Positions 2,415-37,927 of a stretch of 51,291 nt of DNA are shown here, one piece after another. Position numbers and translations under genes: made by a program. The notes under the pieces are model-generated. The model searched no databases, had not been told where the DNA came from, and saw nothing but the letters and a program-made list of their open reading frames with translations. This DNA comes from a virus, in IMG/VR virus record IMGVR_UViG_3300037424_000161, positions 1 through 51,291 of that record, one strand, 5' to 3'. Each line of letters starts with the position of its first letter. Within the stretch, counting starts at the first letter, position 1.

Positions 2415-2569
2415 TGGACTTCTACATTTCAATGGCACTCTCTATTATCTTTCAAGTACTCAAACAAGCTGTAAAGAACAAGAAATCCAAGTCTGACATG
2501 AAGTCTGCATTTCTTAAACTTCGTGATCAGATCAATGTACTCTATGCCGGTGATAGGGATTTTGATTAG
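2414..2569 (+). CDS. Small hypothetical protein (51 aa, below ORF-track cutoff)
   Basis: ATG 2414 overlaps the upstream TAA (TAATG). Translates MDFYISMALSIIFQVLKQAVKNKKSK...; stop TAG at 2567-2569. Confidence 0.35.
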   Translation: MDFYISMALSIIFQVLKQAVKNKKSKSDMKSAFLKLRDQINVLYAGDRDFD

Positions 2570-2577
2570 GAGGAGCT

Positions 2578-3003
2578 ATGCGTAGGGTATTTCTGTTTCT
2601 GCTTCTGGCATTGCTGGCGGCTCCTGCATGGTCGCAGCAGATCACGAAGACCGTCGCCTGGGATGCGAGCTCGTCCGCAGCGACGGCACCGGTTGACAAT
2701 CCCGTGAAATACCGCCTCTACACCTGCGCCGATCAGACTTTCACCGGCTGCCAGGTGCAGGAGGCTGGGACCGCGCTCGAAATCCCGCACACATTCCAGA
2801 GCGGCACTGTATTTCAGTTCGCCACGGCCTACTGGTATGCACTCGTGGTTGACGGTGTGCCGCAAGGGGACATCGCGGAGAGCGGCAAGAGCAACGTCAT
2901 GCGGGTCACAGTGCAGATCCCTCCGGGCAACCCCGGCAATGCGAAGATCCGGGTTGTCGATGTCGAACCGACGAACAGCGGGCAGACCATTGGAGTGAAG
3001 TAA
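2578..3003 (+). CDS. Secreted protein with signal peptide, in G+C-rich island
   Basis: AGGAGG 6 nt upstream of ATG. N-terminus MRRVFLFLLLALLAAPAWSQQ is a classic signal peptide. Composition is visibly more G+C-rich than the flanks. Confidence 0.6.
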   Translation: MRRVFLFLLLALLAAPAWSQQITKTVAWDASSSAATAPVDNPVKYRLYTCADQTFTGCQVQEAGTALEIPHTFQSGTVFQFATAYWYALVVDGVPQGDIAESGKSNVMRVTVQIPPGNPGNAKIRVVDVEPTNSGQTIGVK

Positions 3004-3329
3004 TGTGTTGGCGCGGGCATGACCCGGAGCGGAGGAATAAGTACGGGCATTGCATGGACTGTCACGCAATCCTTATGCGGGCGCGACGGCACGGCAGACA
3101 GGCTCACCGGATGCCTCGTTATCGCTTGAACATTTCGGAATTTCACAGACTGACGAAAGGCAGAATGACAATCGTGGCGCAGTTAGCGGGAATCTCGCGG
3201 GACACTGTTCGATGCTGGCTCTCCGGTGCGCGTCACGCGGGCGGAAGTTGTGCGACGAACAGAGTAAGAGCGGAAGCGCTAACTGCGGTGTTTGGAATAC
3301 CTTTCGATTATTTATGGACGAGTATTTGA
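3003..3329 (+). CDS. Cys/His-rich HTH protein, in G+C-rich island
   Basis: TAATG overlap with the upstream gene. Contains CWRGH...HCMDCH and the HTH-like MTIVAQLAGISRDTVRCWLSG. Competing ORFs in this G+C-rich stretch lower confidence. Confidence 0.45.
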   Translation: MCWRGHDPERRNKYGHCMDCHAILMRARRHGRQAHRMPRYRLNISEFHRLTKGRMTIVAQLAGISRDTVRCWLSGARHAGGSCATNRVRAEALTAVFGIPFDYLWTSI

Positions 3330-3473
3330 CATAAGCAAAGTTCCAATAACCAGATTGCCGTTCGCATACTGGCTGGTATAAGTGTGATAGATTTAGTAAC
3401 AAGAATGAGGGCCACTACTAACTAGCAAGACTGTGAGAGGGAAGGCGGATATATACTAACGCCGGTGGCCCTC

Positions 3474-3498
3474 AGATCATTCAAAAATTGAACGAACT
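3474..3498. repeat. 25-bp palindromic motif, copy 3
   Basis: agatcattcaaaaattgaacgaact; abuts the inverted repeat 3407-3415/3465-3473; ATG 3500 follows after 1 nt. Confidence 0.85.
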
Positions 3499-3499
3499 A

Positions 3500-4561
3500 A
3501 TGGCACCTAAACTTTCAATTATCATCAGTAACCGTAACGACGTGGCAATGTTAGCTGTCACTGTTCGCTCCTGCATAGAGGAACTTCGTCCACTCGGACC
3601 CGGTGCAAGTGAGATAGTGATCGCTGACAACTCTGACAAGGACACCTTTCAGCTCCTAAATGGTGCTTTACCTTCTGGCTACTGCAGAGACAAACTCCTC
3701 AGAATCCTTCGTCAAGACTTTCCCTGCCTTTTCTCCGCACGAGAGTTAGCAGCTGAAAGGGCCCTTGGACAGTACATACTATGTCTCGACTCACATATGA
3801 TAGTCGGACGAGATGTCTTCATCGACCTTGTCGACTTCATGGACCGCCACTCAAATGACAGTGATCTGGGCTTCGCTCATGCTCCAATTTCCTGGGCTCA
3901 TCAGCATGAAGATCGCGCTCGTCATGACCGTGATATGAGTCAGCATGAACTTGGTGCATGGGGTACAGCGTACAAAACTGAGCGTACAATAACTTGGAAG
4001 GGAATGCCTTGGATATGTCGCAGGGAATGGTTCCTTGACCGGAACAAGGGACTAAACGGCTACGGTGCTCTCTCTGAGCATCGTGTGAGTTGGGGAGGAG
4101 GGGACTTGCACATAGGCGTTAAGCCTTGGTTACTTGGATTTAAAAACTGGGCAGTCCCCTCTAACCCATGCATACATATAGGGCCGTTTCCTAAAGTAGA
4201 TCTGGGCAAAGATCCAAATACCACTATTGTCAACAAAGCTCGCCCCGATCGCTATCGCCTCTACAATACAAGTGGAGAGTTCCCTCATACTTTTGGATTT
4301 CTCGTCTCCTGCTACGTACTCGGAGGCGAACCTATGATGCATCGTAATAAGAAAGCTATCACCGAGCACTTTGGACGATTTCTAAATGTTGACAAGTGGT
4401 GGTCGAAAGCTATAGAAATTGGCACTAACGAACGAAAGTGGTTACTTGATCGACAAGTTATGTCATTCGAACAGCTTCTCATAACTAAACCTTGGAACTC
4501 TAATGGCTCAAACTCAACGTCAAGCGACGGATGCACAGATCTACAAGCTGTGGCTGTCTAA
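3500..4561 (+). CDS. GT-A fold glycosyltransferase (GT2/GT27-like)
   Basis: LSIIISNRND...EIVIADNSDKD is a GT2-type N-terminus. ILCLDSHMIV is a DxH motif. WGGGDLHIGVKPWLLG...PCIHIG resembles the WGGENLE Gal/GalNAc-T motif. TTG 3488 trimmed to ATG 3500. Confidence 0.75.
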   Translation: MAPKLSIIISNRNDVAMLAVTVRSCIEELRPLGPGASEIVIADNSDKDTFQLLNGALPSGYCRDKLLRILRQDFPCLFSARELAAERALGQYILCLDSHMIVGRDVFIDLVDFMDRHSNDSDLGFAHAPISWAHQHEDRARHDRDMSQHELGAWGTAYKTERTITWKGMPWICRREWFLDRNKGLNGYGALSEHRVSWGGGDLHIGVKPWLLGFKNWAVPSNPCIHIGPFPKVDLGKDPNTTIVNKARPDRYRLYNTSGEFPHTFGFLVSCYVLGGEPMMHRNKKAITEHFGRFLNVDKWWSKAIEIGTNERKWLLDRQVMSFEQLLITKPWNSNGSNSTSSDGCTDLQAVAV

Positions 4562-4997
4562 AGTACATGATAATAGATACCTACGCCCACAGCGATGGGC
4601 AGAGCTTCTCAAAGTAATAGAGAAGTTTCGTGTAAAAACAGTAATTGAGTTTGGCTGTGGTGTTTCTACACTACTGATGGGTCATAGAGGTATCCGAGTT
4701 GACACTTATGAAACTGATCCTTTCTACCTAGACTTCGTCAAGTCTCTCAATCCACCTAACGTACTCTTTCACCTTCACAATAACGTAAACATAGATGTAT
4801 CTGGCACTTACGACATGGCTCTAGTCGACGGAGTCCTCCCCCGACAGCCTCAGCTAAAGGCCGTCCTGCCACTTACCAGACTAATCGCAATAGATGACTT
4901 TGGCCCACTTTATAAACGCGAGCTTGTACCACTGTTAGGCAATCATACTCGGCTTAATCCAGGCGCACCGTTAATGGCTATTTTCAAGATCGAATAA
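4503..4997 (+). CDS. Class I SAM-dependent methyltransferase-like protein
   Basis: 164 aa. Motif I-like VIEFGCGVST, acidic VDTYETD and DMALVDG. Overlaps the GT gene by 59 nt. Confidence 0.55.
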   Translation: MAQTQRQATDAQIYKLWLSKVHDNRYLRPQRWAELLKVIEKFRVKTVIEFGCGVSTLLMGHRGIRVDTYETDPFYLDFVKSLNPPNVLFHLHNNVNIDVSGTYDMALVDGVLPRQPQLKAVLPLTRLIAIDDFGPLYKRELVPLLGNHTRLNPGAPLMAIFKIE

Positions 4998-6743: not shown

Positions 6744-7207
6744 TGGCTGACAATCCTCAGAAATGGTCTGCCTACACAGCTGCAAAGACTGCATTGTTTG
6801 CAGCTACAGATTTAAAGAACTTGACGACTGGATCTGGTAAGCTATCAACGGCTTCAGCCATTAACAATGCAGCCGGAGATCAGCTAGCCGACCTCGAACT
6901 CTTAATTGATTTAGCAACTGCTGCAGCTGCTGGTGGCTACATTGCTATCTGGTTTATCAAAGCTCTCGATGCATCAAACTATGGAAGCGGCGCTGACGCA
7001 GTATTCCCAGCTAGACCCCCGGATGTAATTATTCCCGTGCGTTCGACCACGGATGACTCACAGGTCGTTACCATTGCTGGTGTACTGTGGCCTCAGGGGT
7101 TATTCAAAGTACTATTTCAGAATAACTCTGGTCAGACAACAACTAACACAGATAGTCTAACTCAAGTTTATTTCCGTTCCTATAACAATAATATAGTGAC
7201 TCCATAG
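6743..7207 (+). CDS. Hypothetical structural/accessory protein
   Basis: 154 aa; start overlaps the terL stop; first of four genes between terL and portal. Confidence 0.55.
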   Translation: MADNPQKWSAYTAAKTALFAATDLKNLTTGSGKLSTASAINNAAGDQLADLELLIDLATAAAAGGYIAIWFIKALDASNYGSGADAVFPARPPDVIIPVRSTTDDSQVVTIAGVLWPQGLFKVLFQNNSGQTTTNTDSLTQVYFRSYNNNIVTP

Positions 7208-8094
7208 TGTCTAAACATTCTCTAATCTGGAATCCATTATCTACTGTGGCTCCTACAACTCTTCCTCCGACGACGTTAGCTCCGACAACAATTCCTACAA
7301 CTTCAGCTCCAACAACTGTCGCTCCTACACTTCCTCCAACTACCCTTGCACCAACTACAGTTCCGACAACTCTCCCTCCTACTACCTTAACTCCAACTAC
7401 CCCAGCTCCAAGCGAAATTAAAGTATCTAAGGCTGTAGTATACTCTGTCCTAGGTCCTCCATACATAAGTGTTTCTAAATCGATCATTTATGCTGTAATA
7501 GAAGAAGTAGTACCTACAACTCTACCAACTACAGTCGCTCCGACTACTCTTCCATCTACATCTCCTCCTACGACTCTCGCTCCAACCACAGTACCAACTA
7601 CTACTGCTCCAACAACTTTGCCGACAACATCTCCATCTACTACAGAGGCTCCTACTACTCTAGCCCCTACAATTGTACCTACAACTCTTGCACCAACAGT
7701 ACTTCCTACTACTCTTCCACCTACAACCTTAGTTCCACCTACAACTCTAGCACCTACCGTTGCTCCAACTACTTTAGCTCCCACTATACCTCCTACAACG
7801 ATAGCTCCGACTACATTTCCTACAACTACTCCTCCGACCACAATAGCGCCTACCACTCACCTAACATCCTTAGCACCCACTACACCTTCCACAACAGGTG
7901 TACCAACAACAGTACTACCAACAACTATAACTCCGACAACCCTTACACCTACAACTTTCTTATCATTAGCTCCAACGACAGCTATACCTTATGTCATATG
8001 TGAGAAGGTATTCGACTCTCGTATTACTAACATATTACATCTAGTCTCATCTATCACTAAGGAGATCAAGTACAATGGACACCTTTGTGGGTGA
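7207..8094 (+). CDS. Pro-Thr-Thr repeat (mucin-like) protein
   Basis: GTG start overlapping the upstream stop. About 220 of 295 aa are x-P-T-T-[LVI] pentads (nt 7249-7410 and 7513-7980). These are split by VSKAVVYSVL/VSKSIIYAVI strands. Confidence 0.6.
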   Translation: MSKHSLIWNPLSTVAPTTLPPTTLAPTTIPTTSAPTTVAPTLPPTTLAPTTVPTTLPPTTLTPTTPAPSEIKVSKAVVYSVLGPPYISVSKSIIYAVIEEVVPTTLPTTVAPTTLPSTSPPTTLAPTTVPTTTAPTTLPTTSPSTTEAPTTLAPTIVPTTLAPTVLPTTLPPTTLVPPTTLAPTVAPTTLAPTIPPTTIAPTTFPTTTPPTTIAPTTHLTSLAPTTPSTTGVPTTVLPTTITPTTLTPTTFLSLAPTTAIPYVICEKVFDSRITNILHLVSSITKEIKYNGHLCG

Positions 8095-8464
8095 TACTCC
8101 AAGATTGGTTATCAAAACAGGTATTGATCTCTCTGGCTATGACACCTTATTGATAAAGTTTAGACGTCCTAATCATACATCAGGGTTTTGGACCGCTACC
8201 ATATATCCTACTAATAACACTTGGATGTACTATGACTTACTACCTACTGATCTTAACATACCAGGAATGTGGGCACTAGAAGCTCACGCTCATGATCCAG
8301 CATTACCAGGAGCTGTGACCGCCCATCTCCATGGTAAACCTTTTAATCTAGACATAGCTATGCCATTGACAGAGTCATCTTCACCTCCGACAACAATGGC
8401 ACCAACGACGACTATAACGACTTTGTCACCAACAACATTAGCGCCAACAACTTTGGCACCGTAG
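8075..8464 (+). CDS. Hypothetical structural protein with C-terminal PTT tag
   Basis: 129 aa ending SSSPPTTMAPTTTITTLSPTTLAPTTLAP (nt 8375-8461). Confidence 0.55.
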   Translation: MDTFVGDTPRLVIKTGIDLSGYDTLLIKFRRPNHTSGFWTATIYPTNNTWMYYDLLPTDLNIPGMWALEAHAHDPALPGAVTAHLHGKPFNLDIAMPLTESSSPPTTMAPTTTITTLSPTTLAPTTLAP

Positions 8465-8469
8465 GTATT

Positions 8470-9432
8470 ATGGCTATACTTTGGATGGGTGGAGAAGACA
8501 TAAGCTTTCCCAATGGAGCAAGTCCTCCAGTAGGTGTCACTACATCAGGATGGTTTAGAAGTAACTATGCCCGCTGTGCACTATCTATGGAGTTACATAC
8601 TGGATATAGTAAAGCATTTTCTGGTGGAGGTGTTACCTCGTGCTGGCTATCTGTGCGGTTTTATTTACTAAATGGTTACTATACTGCTCAGCGAAGTATA
8701 GGGCTTATTAAAAATAGTACTACCAATAGAGGAATATTCTTTGGGTGCCTTTCTGCCAATAAACTATCAATATTTAAGTATAATGGAACTACAGAGACTA
8801 CTCTAGTCACAGAGGTTGGTGCATCTGCAGTGGGACTAAATAAAATAGATATGCAGATCATTGACTATGGTGGATCTGGGACAGTTAATCTCTATGTTAA
8901 TGGCGTATTAGTTGCCACCTATACTGGTGATATTAGTGTTGATGGTGTAAGTGATTTAGATTCAGTCTGGCTCGGACCCAATGGAGCTGAAATTGCAGTA
9001 TCTGAGATTATAGTAGCTAGTACTGATACACGGGCTAAATCACTACGTACACATTCTATCACCGGTGCTGGAGATGCAAATGCTTGGCATGGAACATATG
9101 CAGATATTGATGAGGTTGCAATTAATGATGTAGATTTTGTATACTCAGATGCTGCAGCTGACGATATTCAGTGTGCCCTTGCAGACTCACCAGCCGGGAC
9201 ATTCGCTGTAGATGCAATTAAGGTCGAAGCCCGTGCTTGTATAGGTGCTGGTAGCCCTATTGATGTACTAAAACTCGGTGTTAAGCATGGCGGATCTATC
9301 GATGTAGACGCTGGACAGACTCTAGATGAATCGTGGAAGACTTACGAGAGAATGACAACGACTATTAACGCGAACCCTATTACGACAGCTATATTAGATG
9401 CAGCTCAGCTTAACCTTAGGTCTGCCGCATAG
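8470..9432 (+). CDS. Hypothetical structural protein (beta-rich, jelly-roll/LamG-like guess)
   Basis: 320 aa, beta-strand-rich composition, immediately upstream of portal. Confidence 0.55.
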   Translation: MAILWMGGEDISFPNGASPPVGVTTSGWFRSNYARCALSMELHTGYSKAFSGGGVTSCWLSVRFYLLNGYYTAQRSIGLIKNSTTNRGIFFGCLSANKLSIFKYNGTTETTLVTEVGASAVGLNKIDMQIIDYGGSGTVNLYVNGVLVATYTGDISVDGVSDLDSVWLGPNGAEIAVSEIIVASTDTRAKSLRTHSITGAGDANAWHGTYADIDEVAINDVDFVYSDAAADDIQCALADSPAGTFAVDAIKVEARACIGAGSPIDVLKLGVKHGGSIDVDAGQTLDESWKTYERMTTTINANPITTAILDAAQLNLRSAA

Positions 9433-9463: not shown

Positions 9464-11428
9464 ATGCCATACATAGTGAAGGGTCAAATACCTCTATCAT
9501 GGAAAGATGATATTTATAGTAGGGAGAACTATGACTATAAATATCCTAATGGCCTAGACCTTAAGCCAGGATCTGAGTTTCACAATAAGTTACGTAACTA
9601 CATCTGGGAAAGGGCCTCTCAGTCACGTTGTGAGATTTCTAAACGCTTCGATTCGTGGAATAAGATAGATCAATCTCTCACTGTCTACATTCCTCTCAAG
9701 GATGAGGAAGAACTAATACAGGAAAAGGATACCTCCAAACCAGTCTCTATTATCTTCCCTTATTCCTACTCCATGCTCGAGGCACTTCTCACCTATCTCA
9801 CAATAGCGTTCTTTCAAGATCCTATGTTTCAATATGAGGGAGTTGAGGACAGCGATACAGTAGGCGCTATGCTGATGGAACTAGTCATCCATCTACACTG
9901 TGTTAAGAACAAAGTCCCTCTCAATGTCCATACAGTTCTTCGGGACTGTCTTGCCTACGGAGTAGGTATTGCTATTCCTGAGTGGAGTGAGCGTTGGGGA
10001 AGAAAGCCTGTCAAGAAACCCTCAATGACAGATTCTGCACTTGGAACACGGACTAACAATGAAGTATCAATGGTTTCCTCCATATTATTCGAAGGTAACT
10101 CACTCAGTAACATTGACCCCTACATGTGGCTTCCAGACCCCTCTGTATCAGCCAGCGAAATTCAGAAAGGTGAGTTCGTAGGATGGGTTGACCGCACTAA
10201 TTATATGAACCTACTAACAGAGGAAACCCAGAAAGATTCAAATCTTTTCAATGTAAAGTATCTCAAAGCTCGTAAGGACAAGCGCTCAATCCTAGCCCTC
10301 GACAATAGTGATCGCCAAACTCGTCATGGTGGATCTTCCGAACTCAATCGCTCAATGACAGATACTGTTAACCCAGTCGATCGCATCAGAATGTACGTAA
10401 CTCTCATTCCAAAGGATTGGAAACTAAGTACTGTTGAAGTCCCTGAAAAATGGTACTTTGAACTCGCTTGTGACGATGTAATTATCTCATGTATGAAAGC
10501 TGATCACAATCACGGTCTATATCCTCAGACAGTGGCAGCTCCTGAATACGATGGCTATTCCATAACTCCTATCGGCCGAATGGAGGTCCTCTATGGGCTC
10601 CAACACACTCTCGATTTCCTATTCAATTCCCATATTAGCAATGTGCGGAAAGCGATCAACGACATGCTTATTGTTGATCCCTACTTGGTCAATATCGAAG
10701 ATCTCAGAGATCCAAAACCTGGAAAGCTTATTAGACTTAGACGCCCTGCTTGGGGAAGAGGAGTTGACAAGGTTGTACAGCAACTTGCAGTCACAGACAT
10801 TACGAGACTCAATATTGCAGACAGCGCATACATAACTCAGTGGATGGACAGAGTAAGTGGTGCTGATCAGTCAATGCAGGGTGCACTAAGGATGAGTGGA
10901 CCTGAGCGATTGACTTCGAGTGAATTTCAAGGAACACGAGGTTCAGCTATCTCTCGCCTCCAACGTATTGCAATGCTTATCGGTATGCAGTCGATGCAGG
11001 ATATAGGGACAATGTTCGCTGTTCATGCACAGCAGTACATGAAGCAGGAAACCTATGTTAAAATAGTAGGACGTTACGCTGATCAGTTACAACAGACTTT
11101 TGGGAAGAAGACAAGAGTACCTGTTACACCTTATGACCTAGCAATTAACTATGACTTAATAGTAAGAGATGGCTCAATCCCGGGAGGTAACTTCTCCTCC
11201 TCTTGGATTGATCTCTTCAAAGTTATAGGTACTACACCTGAGCTAATGCAACAGTTCGATGTAACTCGGATCTTCATGTATATAGCCCAGCAACTTGGTG
11301 CTAAGAACGTAGAGGACTTCCGTCGTAACCTTAACAACATCAATGCTGTATCAATGCCTGATGAGGCAGTATCTCGTGGAGTTGAGGCAGGTAATCTAGT
11401 CCCCGCGATGCCAGGAGGAGTACAGTAA
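9464..11428 (+). CDS. Portal protein
   Basis: 654 aa. Size and position (upstream of scaffold-like and capsid genes) fit a portal. No catalytic motif is available to confirm. Confidence 0.7.
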   Translation: MPYIVKGQIPLSWKDDIYSRENYDYKYPNGLDLKPGSEFHNKLRNYIWERASQSRCEISKRFDSWNKIDQSLTVYIPLKDEEELIQEKDTSKPVSIIFPYSYSMLEALLTYLTIAFFQDPMFQYEGVEDSDTVGAMLMELVIHLHCVKNKVPLNVHTVLRDCLAYGVGIAIPEWSERWGRKPVKKPSMTDSALGTRTNNEVSMVSSILFEGNSLSNIDPYMWLPDPSVSASEIQKGEFVGWVDRTNYMNLLTEETQKDSNLFNVKYLKARKDKRSILALDNSDRQTRHGGSSELNRSMTDTVNPVDRIRMYVTLIPKDWKLSTVEVPEKWYFELACDDVIISCMKADHNHGLYPQTVAAPEYDGYSITPIGRMEVLYGLQHTLDFLFNSHISNVRKAINDMLIVDPYLVNIEDLRDPKPGKLIRLRRPAWGRGVDKVVQQLAVTDITRLNIADSAYITQWMDRVSGADQSMQGALRMSGPERLTSSEFQGTRGSAISRLQRIAMLIGMQSMQDIGTMFAVHAQQYMKQETYVKIVGRYADQLQQTFGKKTRVPVTPYDLAINYDLIVRDGSIPGGNFSSSWIDLFKVIGTTPELMQQFDVTRIFMYIAQQLGAKNVEDFRRNLNNINAVSMPDEAVSRGVEAGNLVPAMPGGVQ

Positions 11429-12617: not shown

Positions 12618-13070
12618 ATGGGACTTGAACAGAATAACGAACAGCACTACCGGGAGGTGGTCGATAAGTTCGTTGACATCAATGAGGATTACCAGATGTC
12701 AACGAGGGACTATGTGGTTCGCCCCTCGGCTCATGACCCTCTCAATCAGGCAATCGCTCTTACATTGCCCCCTGTGGCAGAAGCAGTTGGACGCTTCTAC
12801 TCCATCATTTCTCGTGGAGCTGACGCAGTCAATACTATCACTATTCACGACAGACATGATTCAGAATGCTGGACTGCTGACATTGTGATGAATAGCAAGT
12901 GCGACCGTGTACTTATGTACAGCGATGGACTCTGCTGGCATGCACTAACATCCGAATCAGTTGGTGATTGGCCTGGTCAGACTACCAGGGCTCCTGGAAC
13001 TGCGAGACCTACTACACTGGCTCCTACTACACTAGGGCAAACAACTGAGGCGCCAACTACTGCTCCTTAG
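12618..13070 (+). CDS. Hypothetical head-associated protein with C-terminal PTT tag
   Basis: 150 aa ending GQTTRAPGTARPTTLAPTTLGQTTEAPTTAP (nt 12975-13067). Located directly upstream of the capsid gene. Confidence 0.55.
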   Translation: MGLEQNNEQHYREVVDKFVDINEDYQMSTRDYVVRPSAHDPLNQAIALTLPPVAEAVGRFYSIISRGADAVNTITIHDRHDSECWTADIVMNSKCDRVLMYSDGLCWHALTSESVGDWPGQTTRAPGTARPTTLAPTTLGQTTEAPTTAP

Positions 13071-13106: not shown

Positions 13107-13125
13107 TTTTCACGAGGTAACTAAT

Positions 13126-14135: not shown

Positions 14136-15307
14136 TTCATTGGTGGACCCAGTCACAGACAGCTGTAGCTGGTCTCGTTCAGGGTGTTTATACCTTACCT
14201 GATTGCTCTGTTGCATACGTTACTGGTGGAGTGGCCGGGACTGTTCTCTATGTCCTCATAACTACCGCCCTCGGTAATCGTATCCGGGAAGGCCATCAGA
14301 TCCTCCTTCGTTGCTCTACTGACTGGTCAGTAGATGTAGTTGGTAAGGTCACCGGCTGTGCTCGTGGTGGAGTTAATACAGTCCTTGCAGTCAAACTGCT
14401 TGAAGCTGACGATAACTCTATTACGATTCCTGCCCATGACCTGAGTGATTGCGACACCTTTGGCATCATCGGTAACATCAACCCTGAGGGTGGTGAGATG
14501 CCTGATGCAATCGCTCTGAATCCTACTAAGGTATACAACTACACCCAGATCTTCCGTACTCCACTTTCCATTACTCGTACTGCCAAAAAGACTCGTCTTC
14601 GCACTGGCGATCAGTATCAGAAGGCTAAGTCTGAAGCACTCGAGATGCACTCTTGGGAAATGGAGTTGGCGTTCCTCTGGGGTATTCGCACTGAGAACAT
14701 CGGTGACAATGGTAAGCCTGAACGCACCACTATGGGTGTGATCAACTTCATTCGTCAGTTTGCGGCGACAAACTGCGATGATTACACGCTCAATCCCACC
14801 TACGCTGGTGTAGCTTGGCTCACTGGTGGTGAAACCTGGCTTAAGACCATGCTAGAGCAGATCTTCCGCTTCGGTGCCGAAGAGAAACTCTGTCTCTGTG
14901 GATCCGGCTTCTTGCTCGGTATCGACGCTCTCGCTAGTGTCAATGGCTATATCAACCTTTCCGTCGGTCAAAAGGCTTACGGAATGCAGATTCGCTCGTG
15001 GCTTACGCCCTTCGGCACTATTCACATGAAGACTCATCCACTGTTCAGCTTTGCTGCTACAACTCGTAACATGGGAGTTATTCTTGAGCCGAAGGAACTT
15101 ACCTACCGCTACATTGACGATACTTCGTTCTACAGCGAAACGTCTAACAAGACTCATCCTGAAGGCTATGGCAATCGTCGACTTGATGGTACTAATGAGG
15201 AGTTCCTTACTGAGTGTGGACTTGAGTTTGGTCTGCCTCAGAAGTGCGCTGTGCTCAACGGTGTTGGTCTGGATAGTGCTTTAGCGGCGCCGACTACGGC
15301 TCCGTAG
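14136..15307 (+). CDS. Major capsid protein, exon 2
   Basis: The frame is open from 14126, well upstream of the ORF-track GTG 14231. Begins (F)HWWTQSQTAVAGL, contains NYTQIFRTPLSITRTAKKTRLRTGD, and ends in a short PTT tag ALAAPTTAP. Confidence 0.75.
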
Positions 15308-16708: not shown

Positions 16709-17211
16709 TGCCCATCTTACAAAATGGCTCCTTCACATTTGAGATACCCACTGAAGATCTAGCAAAAGGACTACGACCTTCAGTACGTAGTCCTAGGAAT
16801 GCAAAGTTCCTTACACTCTGTGAGGGAATGGTAGGATTGGATAATGTACTACAGGTGCTAGATGACATCGAGACAAATAGAGTCCTTACAGCAGCTATCA
16901 CAGATGGCTTTCCATATCCACAGATCTTTATCTTCACTAATGTAATAATTATCTGTGGTGAGACTACAATCTACGAACTAATTGCTGGTACAATAACATT
17001 GATGCTCGATGTAGGTGCTGGAAATGCCGGGATTGAGTGGTCTGCTGTAGACTTCTTCGATTACGTCTATATGAGTAATGGAAAAGTAGCAGTGCAGCGA
17101 CAAGCGAGTGATCAAGTCTGGGAAATAACCACAGATGTACCTATCGCAAGTGCAATCTGTAACTTCAATGGACAAGTATTAATCGGCGCTCCTGGTGTAG
17201 TGAGACCTTAA
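16708..17211 (+). CDS. Hypothetical structural protein
   Basis: 167 aa; TAATG overlaps at both ends. Confidence 0.55.
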   Translation: MPILQNGSFTFEIPTEDLAKGLRPSVRSPRNAKFLTLCEGMVGLDNVLQVLDDIETNRVLTAAITDGFPYPQIFIFTNVIIICGETTIYELIAGTITLMLDVGAGNAGIEWSAVDFFDYVYMSNGKVAVQRQASDQVWEITTDVPIASAICNFNGQVLIGAPGVVRP

Positions 17212-19388
17212 TGTCTACAACGACTCCTCCTATTACCATTCCTCCGTTCGCTACAACCTTAGCACCTACAACTGAACCTCCTACTTATGCTCCAGTAACA
17301 GACGCGCCTGAAGTACCAATAGTTCCTTCACCCGAACCTTGGGCACAGGATCGTAGACTTGGCCCTTGGTCATTCATATCTCAACGTAATAAGTGGGGCT
17401 ATCTCAATAATCCCAGATGGCAACCTATCCCTAGACCTTTCGTTCACGGTGGACCAGATGACTATACTGGACGAGAGAGTGAAGAACCACAGATCTACAA
17501 ACCTAATGAGCCAAAGTATCCTTCTGGCACAGTGAAGATCCATCATCAGTGTGGACACTGGCATAAACCTGAGGCATCAGGAACTGCACCTCCCTTAGAG
17601 AACTTTTTAATATCTGTACCTCTCGAAATGATGTTTACTAAATATTTCGAGAATGAGTCAAATACTACATGGATAACTACTGAAACAAGAATAGATCCGG
17701 CTGATTACTCTGGTATTATAGATGCCTGGTTTGAAGTAATGGTTGATAGTGGTCAGACAGAAGCCGGTCATGAGTTTAAATTAGTTGATGAAACTGGTTA
17801 TGTATATGCCACAATAGATTGTACCACCGCTCATAATGGCCTTGGTAGAATAAGGGAACATTTTACATTAAGTGCAGTTGCTAGAAATTATTATGTGAGA
17901 ATGGAATATACTGGTCCAAACTGGTGTGCTTCATCCACTAGTAGAGCTATGATAGTCTTGGATATAGTAAACCCTACCATAACTCGTATTCAGATACCTT
18001 TACTAGACTCAAATCAATCTGCTCCTGGATGTGCAGCTACAGGTGAAGAGCAGCATGATTGGCCCATCTTTGTATATGCTTACTGTGGGAGATATAGAAG
18101 AGATGAATATGGCTATGACGATGGAGATACTACCGGTACATCAGGTAATAATCCAAGACAGTTTGTACTATTCAAAAAAGACGAATTAAAGTGGGATACT
18201 ATAGACCATTGGGACCTTGAAGTAATTGGAGGTCTATGGAACTTAGCTGAGGGTAGAGTAGCTCTATTTAATAAAACAACTAATCAAATGGTAGCTGGCT
18301 CGGAGCTAATCTGGCAAGACGGAGATAGTCCATTTCCTGCTGAATTAATAGCTTATTGGGGACCTATAGTTGGCTGTCATCCTTTACGTAAGACTATCAG
18401 AATTGAAAATAATGCTGTTAATTTTACTAATGGAGATGAGTTTGAACTTCGTCTTAGAGCTGTCGGTGGTGTAGACAACTGGGATGAAGTTGTATTAGTT
18501 TATTCAGCTTGTCTATATGCAACAGTTACTCCAGTTACTAAATGTGAAGTTTATTGGAGAATAAGCACAGCCACAGTTGGGACTTATTTTATATGGAATT
18601 ATGATAACTTAGTACGTTCTTTATATGACCCAACAAAGTTCTCACCAGGTGGTACTCTGCATTTTGAGATGACTGCCGCATGTGAAGGTCTATTATCCAA
18701 AATATACATAACAGATTTGGATGAAGAAGATTTTGGATCTCCTGAGGAACAACTATTAAGTCATAGTGCTGAAATTATAAGTGGGGCATGGCAACCCAGT
18801 CCACTAAACTCAGGTCCATTAGGTGATGATATACTAATGAATACTGAAGGTGGTCCACTATTAGATTCATCTGCGTCAATAGTCTTGGCTGTCCCTAGTG
18901 GTGGATATATCTTTGTTAGAGCTGGTGCATTTGACCTAACACCTATAGTTGGAAAGACCGTATATCAGCTAAGACTATATGCTGCAGTAGTAAATGCCAC
19001 TCAAGATACTTATTGGTATCTTGGTGGAGGGTTAGTATTTAGTGAAGCTACTACTGTAACAGGTCCACCAACTGTTTATCAGGTTAGGGGAATTCTACGT
19101 AGTATATCTGGAACTACCGTACCAACTACTGTCTTAGTTGGATTTAATAAGACTGATAGTAACCCTGTTGTATATGCTGTAAATCAAGTATCTGTATTTG
19201 CTGGACTAGCCCAAGATATAGCGGCTACTGAACTAATTCCAACAATGATCAGGACTAGACTACGTACTGGTGATATTCTTGGAGCAATAGATCCAAATCA
19301 TAGAATTATTACACACTATGATGTACCAAATACTAGTAATGACATAGGTCATGCTATGGGATTTCTAATTCGTCAAGTTAGTTTATAG
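17211..19388 (+). CDS. Large tail protein (tail tubular B/nozzle or fibre-like) with N-terminal PTT tag
   Basis: 725 aa beginning MSTTTPPITIPPFATTLAPTTEPPTYAPVTDAPEVPIVPSPEP (nt 17211-17339). The call rests on size and position. Confidence 0.6.
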   Translation: MSTTTPPITIPPFATTLAPTTEPPTYAPVTDAPEVPIVPSPEPWAQDRRLGPWSFISQRNKWGYLNNPRWQPIPRPFVHGGPDDYTGRESEEPQIYKPNEPKYPSGTVKIHHQCGHWHKPEASGTAPPLENFLISVPLEMMFTKYFENESNTTWITTETRIDPADYSGIIDAWFEVMVDSGQTEAGHEFKLVDETGYVYATIDCTTAHNGLGRIREHFTLSAVARNYYVRMEYTGPNWCASSTSRAMIVLDIVNPTITRIQIPLLDSNQSAPGCAATGEEQHDWPIFVYAYCGRYRRDEYGYDDGDTTGTSGNNPRQFVLFKKDELKWDTIDHWDLEVIGGLWNLAEGRVALFNKTTNQMVAGSELIWQDGDSPFPAELIAYWGPIVGCHPLRKTIRIENNAVNFTNGDEFELRLRAVGGVDNWDEVVLVYSACLYATVTPVTKCEVYWRISTATVGTYFIWNYDNLVRSLYDPTKFSPGGTLHFEMTAACEGLLSKIYITDLDEEDFGSPEEQLLSHSAEIISGAWQPSPLNSGPLGDDILMNTEGGPLLDSSASIVLAVPSGGYIFVRAGAFDLTPIVGKTVYQLRLYAAVVNATQDTYWYLGGGLVFSEATTVTGPPTVYQVRGILRSISGTTVPTTVLVGFNKTDSNPVVYAVNQVSVFAGLAQDIAATELIPTMIRTRLRTGDILGAIDPNHRIITHYDVPNTSNDIGHAMGFLIRQVSL

Positions 19389-19834: not shown

Positions 19835-21151
19835 ATGTCTACTCCGGCGCCAACGACATTAGCACCTACTACACCACTGTCACCTACAACTCCAGTACCT
19901 ACTACCTTAGTCGCTCCAACCACGGCTACTACGACAGGTGTGCCAACTACTGAAGCACCTACAACTACACTTACAACATTAGCTCCCACGACAGCAGCCC
20001 CAACGACAGTAGGTCCAACTACACTAGCACCTACGACTATAGTACCAGGTACTACACTAACAACAGTTGCTCCCGCTACAGCTGTGCCAGGTACTTCTGC
20101 ACCTTCACAGATTGAGTATCCGGCTAATTTAATTCTCTACCCAGGTCCAATAGAGATTACCTTATCACTACATGGAGAGATACTTAACAAAACAGTATTT
20201 GTCCAGCCTCTGATAATAACTCTCAGTCTACTCGGATCATATGCTAAGGATGTGTATATAGATGGTGGTCCCATAGAGATCACTATTACACTCCATAGTT
20301 ATGGTACACTAACGGCTGGTGCTAACAAGTGTAACTGGATTCAGTGGTCTAAGGTTGGTTACCTAGACTTTACCATAGATGAATCGAACGTAGCTGGGGA
20401 ACGACCACTTGACTGGAAGGGATGTGTTAGTGAAATACTCAAACTTGTTGATCGAGTGATTGTCTATGGTGAGAATGGTGTGAGTATGATGTCTCCAGCA
20501 GGTGTCAACTGGGGAATGCAAACTCTGCATAGACTGGGGGTTGTATGTAAGCCAGTTGGTACAGATACTGAACACTTCTTCATTGATAAGACTAACAAAC
20601 TATATAGGTTAGCAGGAGATGGACTTAAGCTACTTGATTACTCTGAGTTCCTCTCAACACTAACAAATCCTAGAATGTTACTTGATACAGAAACAGGTAT
20701 CATCTACATCTGTGATGGAGAACTTGGATTTGTCTATAGCACAAAGAGTGGAAGCTTCGGTTCAGGCCCAGTTAATGTAACTGGTGTTGGTACACAGAGT
20801 GGAACACTCTATGTTGTAGCATCTGATATAATCGAAGTACCTAAACTGCATATTTGCACAGATATCTATGACCTAGGTACTCGTAAGCCTAAGACAATTC
20901 AGTGGATTGAAGTAGGTACAGATCTATCTAATGGTCTGCAAGCAATGGTAGAGTCAAGAGTTAGTAACAAACAAGGATTTATGGAATCTAGGTGGATCTT
21001 AGTTAATCCAAGTGGGATGGCATTCATCCCTTGTTATGGGCGAGAGTTTAAGTTTCACCTTCGATCATTCATCTATGAATATCTCGAACTAGATTACCTT
21101 AGGGTGACTGGAACAGTACACGGAACTAACTATCTCGATCAGGTGGGATAA
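19835..21151 (+). CDS. Tail fibre/spike-like protein with 91-aa N-terminal PTT region
   Basis: GGAGG upstream. N-terminus MSTPAPTTLAPTTPLSPTTPVPTT... (nt 19835-20107), followed by repeats GPIEITLSLHG / PLIITLSLLG / GPIEITITLHS. Confidence 0.6.
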   Translation: MSTPAPTTLAPTTPLSPTTPVPTTLVAPTTATTTGVPTTEAPTTTLTTLAPTTAAPTTVGPTTLAPTTIVPGTTLTTVAPATAVPGTSAPSQIEYPANLILYPGPIEITLSLHGEILNKTVFVQPLIITLSLLGSYAKDVYIDGGPIEITITLHSYGTLTAGANKCNWIQWSKVGYLDFTIDESNVAGERPLDWKGCVSEILKLVDRVIVYGENGVSMMSPAGVNWGMQTLHRLGVVCKPVGTDTEHFFIDKTNKLYRLAGDGLKLLDYSEFLSTLTNPRMLLDTETGIIYICDGELGFVYSTKSGSFGSGPVNVTGVGTQSGTLYVVASDIIEVPKLHICTDIYDLGTRKPKTIQWIEVGTDLSNGLQAMVESRVSNKQGFMESRWILVNPSGMAFIPCYGREFKFHLRSFIYEYLELDYLRVTGTVHGTNYLDQVG

Positions 21152-36533: not shown

Positions 36534-36761
36534 CTACTCCATTAGTTTCTGCTGAAGTTCTTGTATACGGCACCAGAGGATGAAGGCCCAGCCACTTACA
36601 TCGAGTAGCTCTTGCTGTATCTCGTCAAGTAATTTGTCAGGTGAAGCTCCAAATGAAGTGTCACCATATGTCTCAGCGCCAATTAAGAGACGATCACGTA
36701 GCATAGCTGAGTACATTGGCCACTTACGTACAATAGCATCACGGGAGATAGGGCAGTTCAT
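36534..36761 (-). CDS. Hypothetical protein
   Basis: The ORF-track start 36773 is a TTG. ATG 36761 has GGAG 7 nt upstream and a TAATG overlap with the upstream stop. Confidence 0.5.
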   Translation of the reverse strand: MNCPISRDAIVRKWPMYSAMLRDRLLIGAETYGDTSFGASPDKLLDEIQQELLDVSGWAFILWCRIQELQQKLME

Positions 36762-37927
36762 TAGCGTCTCCAATTAACCTTAGGCATAATCACTTCCTTA
36801 ATCACTCGATCACGGAAAGGAAGGATTCGTCTAATAAGGTTAGTTATCTGTGTCTGAATATCCTGAGTTGGTGTATATCCTAATTCAAATAGTTTATGAT
36901 GCACTGGGTTGTAATAGTGTGACTCAGCTTCAAGTCGAGGATTAGGAATATGATCTATATCAAGATACGAGGAGCGCTCAAGACCTAAATCCCGGGCTGA
37001 TTGTTGCACCATCTTGGCTAACTGATTGACTGTATAGAGGTTCTCGAACTGGTTGAAAGTTCGATATTCACCTTCAGAAGGAGGATTGTTTAGTGCTATT
37101 GTTAGACACTGAATCGAATCTTTCAATGGCAGAAATCCACGAGTCTGTTCTCCTTTTCCGTACACAGTTAGAGAATGTCCAATGATGGCCTGAACACAGA
37201 AGCGATTAATCACAGTGCCGAAGCACTCGTCGTAGTCGAACCTTGTTAACTCATTATCATTTTTAGTTTCGTTAAGACCGAAGACTACACCTTGCATAAT
37301 GTCGGTAGAGTGTAGACCCCAGTTACGACAGGCAAACTCAATGTTGTGAGTGTCGTGGACTTTGCTTAAGTGGTAGAAAGAACCTGCACTACGTGGAAAT
37401 AGTAGATTAGCATATGGACAATCAGTATCACCCTCATGCCAAGCTTTATCACTTCCTACTATTGCAGAATGAACTTCTGGTATTCTTCCTTCGGGTATAT
37501 CACAATTAGGTGTTCCATACTCTCCCATTGTACCTAATTTAATGAGATGGGCTGAAGGACAGGACTCTTTCATAGCCCAAAGTAGATGTAATGTACCTAT
37601 AACATTCTGCTGCTGAGTCTCAGTCGCATGACGAACTGATTTCATTGAGTATGCAGCAGATGGTTGTTCAGCCAGATGTATGATTGCTTCTGGTTGAAAT
37701 GACCTTACTAGATTAGTGAGTGCTGTATAATCCACACCAAGAGTTATTCTGGAAGTAGGAAACTTCTTCCTATGATCAATAGATGTTAGGGAAGAACTTC
37801 CTTCATTGTACACTCTATGATCTCTCGAATGATTATCCATACCAAGTACATCATGGCCCCTAGAATCTAGATGAAGTGCCAGTGGCCATCCAATATAGCC
37901 GTCAATTCCCAGAATGAGAACTCTCAT
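36761..37927 (-). CDS. sqdB: UDP-sulfoquinovose synthase (SQD1/SqdB) homologue, extended SDR
   Basis: 388 aa. Blocks ILGIDGYIGW, KLGTMGEYGTPN, SFYHLSKVHDTHNI (YxxxK), NRFCVQAIIGHSLTVYGKGEQTRGF and PNPRLEAESHYYN match my recollection of SQD1 almost block for block. Confidence 0.7.
   Translation of the reverse strand: MRVLILGIDGYIGWPLALHLDSRGHDVLGMDNHSRDHRVYNEGSSSLTSIDHRKKFPTSRITLGVDYTALTNLVRSFQPEAIIHLAEQPSAAYSMKSVRHATETQQQNVIGTLHLLWAMKESCPSAHLIKLGTMGEYGTPNCDIPEGRIPEVHSAIVGSDKAWHEGDTDCPYANLLFPRSAGSFYHLSKVHDTHNIEFACRNWGLHSTDIMQGVVFGLNETKNDNELTRFDYDECFGTVINRFCVQAIIGHSLTVYGKGEQTRGFLPLKDSIQCLTIALNNPPSEGEYRTFNQFENLYTVNQLAKMVQQSARDLGLERSSYLDIDHIPNPRLEAESHYYNPVHHKLFELGYTPTQDIQTQITNLIRRILPFRDRVIKEVIMPKVNWRR

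Follow-up and report, generated by a model that had tools for sequence, protein, structure and literature searches.

Mucin-like Pro-Thr-Thr tracts and a putative GT27-like glycosyltransferase in an environmental phage: predicted self-encoded O-glycosylation of virion appendages

Bacterial and fungal glycoside hydrolases possess Pro-Thr linkers that are P/T-rich, extended, variable in length and sometimes O-glycosylated. Low-complexity repeat appendages on a conserved anchor also occur among viruses, as the glycosylated fibrils of giant viruses and the collagen-like or Ig-like decorations of phages. Glycosylation of phage particles has, to our knowledge, so far been documented mainly in a few actinobacteriophages. 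In mycobacteriophages Che8 and Rita, the proteins of the capsid are glycosylated by phage glycosyltransferases (GTs) (PMC11256854), and this virion glycosylation is reported to form a ‘glycan shield’ (Freeman et al. 2023 in PMC11256854, PMC13313380). In the GALNT enzymes of animal mucin synthesis, the Mn2+ site consists of a DxH motif and a distal His (D209/H211/H344 in GALNT1; PMC4202792), and polypeptide GalNAc-transferases (ppGalNAc-Ts) prefer Thr with Pro at positions -3, -1, +1 or +3 (PMC9950641). The standard acceptor peptide of GalNAc-T2 is EA2, PTTDSTTPAPTTK, and functional expression of this enzyme in E. coli has been achieved (PMC4299809, PMC6202839).

Here we describe a DNA of 51,291 nucleotides from an uncultured phage, the whole of which is called the window below (IMG/VR record IMGVR_UViG_3300037424_000161). 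On balance, we somewhat favor the prediction that this phage itself encodes mucin-type O-glycosylation of its virion appendages.

Pro-Thr-Thr tracts and the proteins that carry them

The pentad x-P-T-T-[LVI] was counted 56 times in the proteome (56 PTT in 14,123 residues), against 3.4±1.9 by chance (mean of 300 shuffles, maximum 10). The product of 7207-8094 contains 35 of these PTT units, the N-terminus of 19835-21151 contains 11, the C-termini of 8075-8464 and 12618-13070 contain four and three, respectively, and one is found at the C-terminus of the capsid protein (ALAAPTTAP); the P/T-rich N-terminus of 17211-19388 has one, and a further, unrelated PTT is internal to the same protein. Segments with at least 14 T+P per 30 residues are confined to five proteins of this genome and are terminal in every one of them. 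The tagged proteins thus comprise these five, whose terminal T/P-rich tracts are clear, plus the capsid protein with one 9-residue unit. An earlier, sequence-only reading of the window had spoken of at least seven, although its own list contained six; the positions and sequences that it gave for the tags proved correct throughout, and so did its description of the repeats as codon-diverse.

The mucin-like protein encoded by 7207..8094 (plus strand; 295 aa, 30% Thr, 19% Pro, 49% T+P) has two PTT tracts (nt 7249-7410 and 7513-7980), a short insert without the repeat (aa 69-102), and a conserved C-terminal segment of approximately 35 aa; its versions in relatives are 400-740 aa long and often possess an N-terminal globular domain as well. 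Frame 0 of the plus strand is the sole frame open throughout this gene. Proline in the repeat is encoded by all four codons (CCA 12, CCT 14, CCG 8, CCC 1), as is threonine, and the tandem arrays formed by the tracts at the DNA level match at only 59-85%. DNA homology being that poor and the codons that diverse, the repeat is therefore under selection as a peptide. P/T-dominated tandem repeats, variable unit number, and disorder, as indicated by the low pLDDT of the tail described below, are the characters of mucin-like (PTS) repeats, and all of them were found here. Coding on the minus strand, in the VVG-repeat ORFs 7143-7487 and 7488-7856, was rejected, given stops across the CDS and the antisense orientation of these ORFs relative to an operon lying entirely on the plus strand.

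The codon diversity and the imperfect DNA matches also bear on the proposal that PTT-coding DNA provides recombination junctions for module swap or insertion, the peptide being a tolerated by-product. A 2.6-kb cassette (17211-19835) does split a gene found undivided in 11 relatives, PT-rich coding tracts are present at both borders of this cassette, and the domains attached to tracts differ widely among relatives. However, the placement of Pro around Thr is conserved and the link to the GT described below is left unexplained, and we consider this proposal very improbable. The search of region 7207-8464 against 50,697 phage records by blastn yielded no match, and no Rfam family was found in the whole window at the gathering threshold. 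PHROGs and Pfam searches with the tagged proteins returned the capsid protein match and a spurious low-complexity match to tape-measure proteins, otherwise none.

The start of the next gene (8075..8464, plus strand) overlaps the end of 7207-8094. Its small product ends in a PTT tag (aa 91-129, nt 8345-8461); the domain of about 100 aa that precedes the tag gave no identification in PDB and Pfam searches. T/P-rich tails of the PPTT/APTT type end approximately 13 of the 18 homologues of this protein in relatives, and the gene pair is kept in three of them (L025, L108, and L140). It is followed by 8470..9432 (plus strand), a member of PHROG 6368, whose function is unassigned in PHROG, with a weak ConA-like lectin/glucanase signal (Laminin_G_3, E 1.4e-4, below cutoff); this gene is possibly part of the variable TerL-portal cassette as well.

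The protein encoded by 12618..13070 (plus strand), between a scaffold-like gene and the capsid gene, combines a predicted virion-anchor domain, at aa ~20-110, with a PTT tail that spans aa 117-150 (nt 12966-13067) and is disordered. In the AF2 model, pLDDT is 86-94 for the core and 47-64 for the tail. Foldseek matched the model to N-terminal anchor domains of tailspikes and to the Pa223 capsid spike, as well as to N-terminal regions of many long fiber proteins of phages, and matches of the anchor domain in BFVD include collagen-repeat proteins of Klosneuvirus and phage fibers. The folded part of the model thus resembles domains that anchor spikes and fibers to particles, and the tag is probably exposed on the particle. 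Homologues of this protein number 741; among the best 120, PTT tails of very variable length were found in 108. The tails range from 25 to ~150 aa, the sequence and number of units vary freely, and some relatives have domains of 180-400 aa in place of the PTT tail.

The five-residue period with a hydrophobic residue at a fixed position, along with the attachment to anchor domains of an often trimeric kind, could also suggest that the pentads fold into a regular rod, for instance a β-helix of the pentapeptide-repeat type or a trimeric stalk of polyproline type, and are not acceptors. Yet the spacing of the units in 7207-8094 is irregular (5 residues in 16 cases, 4 in 6, and 9 in 8), the tail has the low pLDDT given above, and unit sequence and number vary as freely as just described, which makes a rod hardly credible. 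The pentapeptide-repeat fold in particular was rejected because the spacing is irregular and no Pfam pentapeptide match was found at E <=0.01. Another proposal is that the tracts are adhesive tags that, even unmodified, attach to the host capsule, to biofilm, or to the surfaces of particles. It agrees with the position of the tracts at the exposed termini of virion-anchor and fiber-like proteins, as well as with the adjoining weak ConA-like lectin/glucanase protein. Nevertheless, searches of the tracts revealed neither a known binding fold nor a Pfam family, a bare T/P-rich sequence offers little for binding, and the dependence on the GT would have no explanation; adhesive tags of this kind seem to us unlikely.

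The capsid protein (SU10_MCP in Pfam, E 4e-29) ends in ALAAPTTAP (15278..15304, plus strand). The capsid tag noticed in the sequence-only reading is thus present, but it is marginal: it is a single PTT unit, common to one relative (L016) alone among 44, most of which end in ...GLDNxLTP. An intein in the capsid gene was considered and rejected, as the two exons do not share a reading frame. Two proteins encoded further downstream carry their tags at the N-terminus. In the 725-aa product of 17211-19388, the N-terminal 45 aa (17211..17345, plus strand) are P/T-rich, with 10 Thr, eight of which have Pro at +3; the tag is absent from the L025 relative of this protein. In the 438-aa product of 19835-21151, the tag (19835..20110, plus strand) covers aa 1-92, and in close relatives it ranges from 0 to ~11 units and is internal in L018. 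A structural role has direct support for the product of 12618-13070 (structure match) and for the capsid protein (Pfam), and for most of the tagged proteins it is suggested by gene position; the earlier description of all of them as structural thus stands for these two and is presumed for the others. Likewise, the claim that tags are always terminal agrees with the window but not with relatives, four of which (L018, L140, L016, and L025) also have PTT tracts as internal linkers joining globular domains.

The glycosyltransferase and possible accessory enzymes

The gene 3488..4561 (plus strand) shares a rightward operon with structural and packaging genes, from which it is not separated by any terminator-like site, and encodes a GT of 357 aa, predicted to be a GT-A enzyme similar to ppGalNAc-Ts (family GT27). 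Pfam assigns it to Glycos_transf_2 (E 2.3e-11). When its AF2 model (pLDDT 85) was compared with PDB by Foldseek, 40 of the 40 best matches were ppGalNAc-Ts (E 4e-13 to 6e-11), with query-normalized TM of 0.48-0.64 and ~350 of 357 residues aligned; the next family was represented by Listeria RmlT (TM 0.45). A profile of 19 diverse phage GTs (A5) matched ppGalNAc-T9, T12, T10, T7, T4, T1, and T2 (E 4e-10 to 4e-6). The match covers both catalytic halves in T10, T4, T1, T2 (residues 139-360), and Toxoplasma T3, with E 2e-9 to 4e-6 for T1, T2, T4, and T10, and is limited to the first ~115 positions in other GT-A families.

The alignment of the GT profile with GalNAc-T2 by hhalign (94%, E 1.4e-7, 201 columns) places D101-S-H103 opposite D224-S-H226, WGGGD opposite W331GGEN, and H230 opposite H359. 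The segments W202GGGDLHIGVKPW and W331GGENLEISFRVW align without gaps, with a score reached in 2 of 500 shuffles, and D101, H103, W202, and H230 are invariant across the 19 diverse homologues, down to 22% identity. Hence both the DxH motif with the distal His of the Mn2+ site and the Gal/GalNAc-T motif are present. From the model and these alignments, we classify the enzyme as GT27-like and as a putative polypeptide glycosyltransferase; its fold by itself does not reveal the acceptor specificity.

The GT27 link was seen only by the structure search and the more diverse profile, and the identity of the GT to ppGalNAc-Ts is only 14-20%. A single-sequence phmmer search against PDB and a profile of the C-terminal half alone gave nothing useful; a profile of close homologues produced only generic N-terminal GT-A matches in PDB, and significant similarity to ppGalNAc-Ts over both halves was not obtained with the narrower profiles A1 and A2. 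The best sequence matches by E-value, chondroitin synthase and the wall-teichoic-acid GlcNAc-transferase TarP (6h1j), are to the N-terminal half. Neither Glyco_transf_7C nor Ricin was found by Pfam in 29 GT homologues, and the protein contains no lectin domain, the catalytic domain being followed only by helices and a disordered tail. The N-terminus, MNELMAPKLSIIISNRND, leads directly into the first β-strand with no obvious membrane anchor (by eye). A search for the family in 185,579 cellular species genomes gave one match, on a 6-kb MAG contig; on this basis the family is phage-restricted and confined to one phage lineage. Glycosylation of DNA by the GT was rejected, as the ORFs of the replication module gave no Pfam match to a hydroxymethylase, to TET/JBP, or to a thymidylate-synthase-like protein.

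The composition of the tracts is consistent with the acceptor preference of ppGalNAc-Ts. Of 157 tract Thr residues, 82% have Pro at -3, -1, +1, or +3, and 48% have it at +3; the units PTT and APTT are common to the phage tracts and the EA2 peptide. A candidate acceptor peptide predicted for the GT is APTTLAPTTLAP.

The sequence-only reading had paired the tags with a GT, a methyltransferase, and a nucleotide-sugar enzyme, and the three differ in how well they are supported. The GT is GT27-like, as described above. The gene directly 3’ of it (4503..4997, plus strand) encodes a possible SAM-dependent methyltransferase with the motif VIEFGCGVST (by eye), a weak call that is sub-threshold in Pfam (Methyltransf_23, E 0.048, 13.8 bits vs. 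cutoff 27); its homologues follow the GT in seven relatives (L081, L082, L091, L096, L110, L123, and L146). The third is a homologue of UDP-sulfoquinovose synthase (SQD1/SqdB/Agl3; 36761..37927, minus strand), with the YHLSK motif and a match to NF041015 over residues 1-387 of 388 (E 7e-137; 456 bits, below the NCBIfam equivalog cutoff of 575 bits), a candidate supplier of the sugar donor whose link to the tags is tentative. A scan with a degenerate DNA motif located homologues of it with 53-61% identity in nine GT-positive contigs of the phage family and in none of eight long GT-negative contigs. UDP-sulfoquinovose could conceivably be the sugar donor.

Glycosyltransferase and tracts in related phages

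The phage family is represented in metagenomes by hundreds of homologues of the GT and of the tail protein, and Logan, ENA, and JGI contain many of its genomes with a length of at least 40 kb. Among the approximately 230 related loci compared, PTT tracts were found in no GT-lacking genome, GT-negative status having been assigned on the basis of only the 5-10 kb that lie upstream of TerL. The assessable loci include 22 with both GT and PTT tracts, 11 with GT and no PTT, 12 with neither, and none with PTT and no GT; approximately eight additional GT-negative contigs are all PTT-negative. About one third of GT-positive loci lack dense PTT under the strict rule (at least three PTT within 40 aa), which under-calls tags such as the single-unit tails of L017 and L021, and most of these loci still have a T-rich tail on the homologue of 12618-13070; the tail in L269 is a 100-aa domain and not T-rich. 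After dereplication, this tail is PTT- or T-rich in 12 GT-positive genomes and GYDY in none of them; in GT-negative genomes it is PTT in none, GYDYDY in seven, a large domain in three, and of other types in four.

GT-negative groups form approximately two clades on the portal tree and approximately four to five on the TerL tree. The co-occurrence is therefore not phylogenetically independent, and represents about 3-5 independent events of GT loss; with this restriction, the survey of relatives for joint presence of PTT tracts and GT, proposed along with the sequence-only reading, was positive. The outgroup Desulfofustis phage has neither GT nor PTT tracts. The two features are also adjacent in some genomes: in L133, the GT is followed at a distance of 4 nt by the start of a PTT-tailed ORF, and in L138, directly after two GT paralogues, comes a 513-aa protein of the type (PP[TS][TS]L)n. 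PTT/PST repeats also occur in some relatives in the scaffold-like protein, which speaks against glycosylated surface tags, as a protein of this kind would normally not be exposed.

These data have to be weighed against a possible, if doubtful, alternative, in which the tracts are unglycosylated, extended, protease-resistant spacers, comparable to the Pro-Thr linkers in cellulases of bacteria, and the target of the GT is elsewhere, for example a host envelope polymer, as for prophage TarP, or some other molecule. The tracts join two globular domains in the four relatives named above, their length is hypervariable, as in linkers, and TarP and chondroitin synthase are among the best sequence matches of the N-terminal half of the GT. 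On the other hand, most tracts in the window are free ends that join nothing (8075-8464, 12618-13070, and the capsid protein), T/P-rich tails of 12618-13070 homologues are found in GT-positive genomes only, both halves of the GT are matched by ppGalNAc-Ts only, and the GT, apparently soluble, shares its operon with packaging and structural genes.

Predicted glycosylation and comparison with known systems

In the preferred reading, self-encoded O-glycosylation, the PTT tracts would be mucin-like, extended, intrinsically disordered acceptor modules on proteins at the outside of the virion. Late in infection, the soluble GT27-like enzyme would bind a UDP-sugar via its D101-x-H103/H230 Mn2+ site and transfer the first sugar to Thr that has Pro at -1, at +3, or at both positions. 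The reaction would take place in the cytoplasm of the host, either while particles assemble or beforehand. Both the action of the GT on tract Thr and the exposure of the tagged proteins on the particle are presumed in this scheme. The product would be a glycan-coated ‘hair’ or stalk, such as the free protein 7207-8094, the tails of 12618-13070 and 8075-8464, and the N-terminal stalks of the two tail-region proteins. Tract length would change quickly among relatives, and hence the glycan load. The coat could serve for shielding or stabilization, stalk stiffening, or adhesion. The earlier proposal of modular O-glycosylation acceptors modified by a phage GT, still a prediction, has passed the computational tests, with a GT27-like enzyme, the co-occurrence in relatives, and a virion-anchor fold in at least one tagged protein in its favor. 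A complete phage O-glycosylation system, in which a minimal, lectin-free, anchor-free GT27-like enzyme, rapidly evolving PTS-repeat substrates on the appendages of the virion, and the UDP-sulfoquinovose synthase together produce sulfonated mucin-like hairs, seems rather unlikely; if real, it would give the family that initiates animal mucin synthesis its first counterpart in a prokaryotic virus and might offer a view of how this family originated.

If the preferred reading is correct, an abundant environmental phage family shares the enzyme logic of animal mucin synthesis, in which a GT-A enzyme with DxH and WGG motifs modifies P-T-T repeats, and uses it to coat its own appendages; the relationship of GT27 enzymes to phage enzymes would then be a question to ask. 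As a polypeptide O-glycosyltransferase, the GT would be compact, soluble, and free of a lectin domain, and it could perhaps function in the bacterial cytoplasm; this would be of practical interest for the production of mucin-type glycoproteins in bacteria. Moreover, widespread low-complexity tails of phage proteins, ignored by annotation, would be accounted for, and the PTT tails of GT-positive and GYDYDY tails of GT-negative phages would offer a natural on/off comparison of the glycan coat.

Several known systems resemble the one predicted here. First, the fibrils of giant viruses and the collagen- or Ig-like decorations of phages differ from the PTT tracts, which contain neither G-X-Y repeats nor Ig-like Pfam domains, and different enzymology is expected. 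Second, the Pro-Thr linkers of glycoside hydrolases are similar to the phage tracts that join two domains in relatives; unlike them, the phage pentad has a fixed hydrophobic residue, its tracts form free termini in the window, and it co-occurs with a dedicated phage GT. Third, Che8 and Rita are similar in encoding their own GTs, sometimes with a methyltransferase, and the window contains, at the level of genes, the corresponding combination of a phage GT with T/P-rich termini on five proteins and one capsid unit. They belong to a different phage group with actinobacterial hosts, their GTs are not known to be GT27-like, and the glycans described there are on capsids, whereas here long mucin-like repeats are found on appendage proteins and the capsid protein has one unit at most. 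Finally, eukaryotic GT27 enzymes have a ricin-type lectin domain and a type II anchor, reside in the Golgi, and transfer GalNAc from UDP-GalNAc; the phage GT, with 14-20% identity to them, has no such domain and no obvious anchor and is predicted to act in the bacterial cytoplasm on particle proteins. What the two have in common is a GT-A domain with DxH, WGG(E/G), and the distal Mn2+-binding His in register, along with P/T-rich acceptors that are arranged in tandem and carry Pro at positions -1 and +3.

Genome organization and relatives

The 51,291-base window holds nearly the whole genome of an uncultured tailed phage, which encodes packaging and particle proteins in a rightward operon (514-30271, +) and replication proteins in a leftward gene block. 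Two near-consensus sigma-70-like promoters (242-518; 11/12 matches each) diverge at the border of these blocks, one at 269-242 (-) and the other at 490-518 (+). An independent assembly of the same phage was obtained from SRR12684511. The portal protein (9464-11428) shares 42% identity with its counterpart in Desulfofustis phage LS06-2018-MD01, which is the nearest relative among phages that have a genome record in the phage collection. Metagenomes contain many relatives: a scan of them found a related portal protein on 150 viral contigs, the best 80 of these 150 being 69-79% identical.

The capsid protein matches Pfam SU10_MCP. Its gene (13123-15307), uninterrupted in relatives, is split into exon 1 (13123-13278; 94% identity to residues 2-53 of the relatives' capsid proteins) and exon 2 (14138-15307), which lie in different frames with a LAGLIDADG homing-endonuclease ORF (13268-14113) between them. 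The interruption is probably due to a group I intron that carries a homing endonuclease; the Rfam group I intron match at 13930-14126 is weak (25.6 bits, E = 4e-4, below gathering). A GC-rich island (~2400-3400; GC 0.50 vs ~0.42 in flanking windows) looks foreign to the remaining genome; it contains long overlapping ORFs on both strands and a small ORF (2578-3003) with a signal-peptide-like N-terminus (MRRVFLFLLLALLAAPAWS). After the tail genes, a single ORF of 2,214 aa (23627-30271) with an Ala/Lys/Glu-rich low-complexity region received no Pfam assignment and probably encodes an internal or ejection protein. The replication module, which includes genes at 46784-47188 (-), 43056-43412 (-), and 34340-35671 (-), encodes a dATP/dGTP pyrophosphohydrolase (PF04447, E = 4.7e-13), a HIRAN-domain protein, and a DNA adenine methyltransferase with a fused ParB-like domain. 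Pfam scans of its ORFs detected no DNA-hypermodification genes; therefore, DNA glycosylation is unlikely.

Thr/Pro-rich repeats and their carrier proteins

Thr/Pro-rich repeats (PTT tracts) were confirmed at the positions reported by the sequence-only reading. They make up most of protein 7207-8094 (35 PTT) and occupy the C-termini of proteins 8075-8464 (four), 12618-13070 (three), and the capsid protein, 14231-15307 (one), and the N-termini of proteins 17211-19388 (one, plus one unrelated internal) and 19835-21151 (11). The number of tagged proteins, previously put at seven or more, had to be lowered: as the capsid tag consists of just nine residues (ALAAPTTAP, an extension common to 1/44 relatives), and just five proteins have 30-residue windows that reach 14 or more Thr+Pro, each time at an end, the count is six, the capsid protein being marginal. 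The repeat observation itself is robust, with 56 PTT in the 14,123-residue proteome and 3.4±1.9 (maximum 10) in composition-preserving shuffles. The unit [A/P]-P-T-T-[L/V/I]-[A/P] recurs at a spacing of 5, 4, or 9 residues. Selection acts at the peptide: each of the four Pro codons and each of the four Thr codons is used, the DNA tandem arrays match at no more than 59-85%, and frame +0 is the sole frame open throughout 7207-8094. A DNA-level role of the tracts in module exchange is a lesser alternative.

Protein 12618-13070, encoded between the scaffold-like and capsid genes, was modeled by AF2 as a β-rich core (pLDDT 86-94) with a disordered tail (pLDDT 47-64); a regular repeat fold of the tracts is likewise a lesser alternative. 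The core is similar to the domains at tailspike N-termini that serve as particle anchors (Acinetobacter phage Solidus gp83, E = 7e-5; CBA120 TSP4), as well as to baseplate proteins and the capsid spike of Pseudomonas phage Pa223, and a BFVD search aligned it with the N-terminal ~100 residues of numerous long phage fibre, collagen-repeat, and pectate-lyase proteins (E ~1e-8 to 1e-5). Domains of 180-400 residues take the place of the PTT tail in some relatives, which argues that the C-terminus points outward. Among the best 120 of 741 homologues, 108 have PTT tails, 25 to about 150 residues long and opening with a conserved WPGxSTTAPPGT. Intrinsic adhesion by the tracts is a further lesser possibility. 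The scaffold-like protein bears ESPSTxAPST-type repeats in some relatives (L017, 12720-13586; L052, 11250-12068) and 2-4 PTT units in several PTT+ relatives; if it is truly a scaffold, repeats on such an internal protein are unexpected.

Genes 7207-8094 and 8075-8464 form a conserved overlapping pair in a variable terminase-portal cassette. The relatives' counterpart of the former (400-740 residues) often has an N-terminal globular domain before the PTT stalk; PDB and Pfam searches identified no fold for the domain of the latter. Directly downstream of the pair, 8470-9432 (PHROG 6368) gave a weak ConA-like lectin/glucanase signal (Laminin_G_3, E = 1.4e-4, below cutoff) and has a homologue in just 2 of the first 80 relatives. 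We infer solely from gene position that proteins 17211-19388 and 19835-21151 are on the virion. In 11 relatives, one ~470-aa protein matches protein 16708-17211 with its N-half and residues 157-438 of protein 19835-21151 with its C-half. In the window the two parts are separated by a 2.6-kb cassette (17211-19388 and 19398-19823) with PT-rich coding tracts at both borders, and the gene (16708-21151) looks split by insertion.

A GT27-like glycosyltransferase

The putative glycosyltransferase (GT; 3488-4561, +) matches only the generic Glycos_transf_2 domain in Pfam, and PDB searches with the single sequence and narrow profiles yielded nothing specific. An AF2 model built from 29 homologues (pLDDT 85, pTM 0.86) had polypeptide GalNAc-transferases (ppGalNAc-Ts, family GT27) as all 40 of its best PDB structure matches, namely human T2, T4, T7, T10, and T12, fly PGANT9, and Toxoplasma T3 (TgT3). 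Essentially the whole protein was aligned (E = 4e-13 to 6e-11), and TM-scores for the next family were clearly lower. A more diverse alignment, comprising 19 phage GTs and paralogues (identity down to 22%), contains eleven invariant positions, including D101, H103, W202, and H230. Its profile matched ppGalNAc-Ts at E = 4e-10 to 4e-6, covering both catalytic halves for T1, T2, T4, T10, and TgT3 (T2 residues 139-360), as against the first ~115 positions only for chondroitin synthase, TarP, and other GT-A enzymes. Alignment by hhalign to GalNAc-T2 (reference 100% identical to PDB 2ffu_A; 94% probability, E = 1.4e-7, 201 columns) places DSH on D224-S-H226, WGGGD on W331GGEN, and H230 on H359; these correspond, in order, to the DxH motif, the Gal/GalNAc-T motif, and the distal His of the Mn2+/UDP site in GT27 enzymes (PMC4202792). 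Model and profiles together make the GT27-like assignment well supported. The enzyme is predicted to resemble the GT27 catalytic domain but to be no canonical member of the full-length family: unlike GT27 enzymes it lacks the lectin domain, and its N-terminus has no obvious membrane anchor; therefore, it would act as a soluble protein in the host cytoplasm.

The GT family is all but confined to phages. A large protein collection contains 398 homologues, of which the top 120 show 62-74% identity and lie in many cases on 40-52-kb contigs, and 185,579 cellular species genomes gave one match, on a 6-kb MAG contig. Relatives L125, L138, L126, L128, L098, and L118 have two or three tandem GT paralogues, one of which (L125, 466 aa) is extended by an additional C-terminal region; some relatives may therefore build longer or different glycans.

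The tracts would fit such an enzyme as substrate. Among 157 Thr residues within them, 82% have Pro at -3, -1, +1, or +3, the positions preferred by ppGalNAc-Ts (PMC9950641); for 48%, a Pro is present at +3. EA2, the classical acceptor peptide for GalNAc-T2 (PTTDSTTPAPTTK; PMC4299809, PMC6202839), is built from PTT and APTT units like those of the phage tracts. Recombinant GalNAc-T2 made in E. coli is functional, and this host has been equipped for mucin-type glycosylation in vivo (PMC4299809, PMC6202839).

Co-occurrence of enzyme and tags, and proposed function

The co-occurrence check proposed by the sequence-only reading was run on portal-, GT-, and terminase-anchored loci. GT presence was scored by profile HMM, and a tag required at least three PTT within 40 residues. 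Of the GT+ loci, 22 (18 distinct contigs) were PTT+ and 11 (9 distinct contigs) PTT-, while all 12 GT- loci were PTT-. A locus was called GT- only if its sequence included 5 kb or more upstream of the terminase gene, and the label refers to that stretch. About eight more metagenome GT- contigs were PTT- as well, and the outgroup Desulfofustis phage has neither GT nor tracts. L017 and L021, both PTT- by this rule, nevertheless end in PTT tails of a single unit. On the portal tree the GT- loci fall into about two clades, and on the terminase tree into about four or five groups; they thus represent few independent events. The association persists over GT identities of 38-74%.

The cleanest readout came from the 12618-13070 homologue, in which a ~110-residue core is conserved and the tail varies. 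Across L001-L296 the tails are of discrete types: PTT/T-rich, aromatic-acidic (GYDYDY, confined to genomes without GT), or an added domain of 180-400 aa. In dereplicated counts, PTT/T-rich tails occurred in 12 GT+ and no GT- genomes, GYDYDY in none and seven, large domains in one and three, and other tails in six (three also T-rich, two truncated) and four. Gene order adds support for the link: in L133 a PTT-tailed ORF begins 4 nt after the GT, and in L138 a 513-residue (PP[TS][TS]L)n protein follows immediately after two GT paralogues.

Of the accessory enzymes claimed earlier, the methyltransferase (4503-4997) matches Methyltransf_23 only below threshold (E = 0.048). The nucleotide-sugar enzyme (36761-37927, -) is a homologue of UDP-sulfoquinovose synthase (full-length match to NF041015, E = 7e-137, 456 bits vs a cutoff of 575; YHLSK motif present), but that it supplies donor sugar for the tags is speculation. 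By insensitive motif scan, such homologues (53-61% identity) occur on nine GT+ contigs of the family and 0/8 long GT- contigs; SQD1-like genes were found on 61 viral contigs in all. Viral copies are listed as auxiliary metabolic genes (PMC7785012).

A functional link between GT and tags is supported on computational grounds only, and we lean, by a modest degree, towards the earlier suggestion that the phage GT glycosylates the tags. The main rival, in which the tracts serve simply as spacers and the GT acts on a different target, gains from internal-linker occurrences of tracts and from the TarP-like sequence matches of the GT, but fits poorly with the free-end architecture, the co-occurrence, and the two-half match unique to ppGalNAc-Ts; we consider it rather improbable. 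In the mechanism that we consider most likely, the GT27-like enzyme would O-glycosylate Thr of the tracts in the host cytoplasm late in infection, and the particle would then bear hairs and stalks coated with glycans. Judging from mucins and glycosylated linkers, the glycans may make the tracts stiffer and more extended and guard them against proteases; judging from mycobacteriophages, they could form a shield around the particle (PMC11256854). Mycobacteriophages are known to encode glycosylation of their virion proteins, and eukaryotes are known for mucin-type glycosylation by GT27 enzymes; our literature search found no description of a phage in which a GT27-like enzyme and mucin-like repeats occur as a pair.
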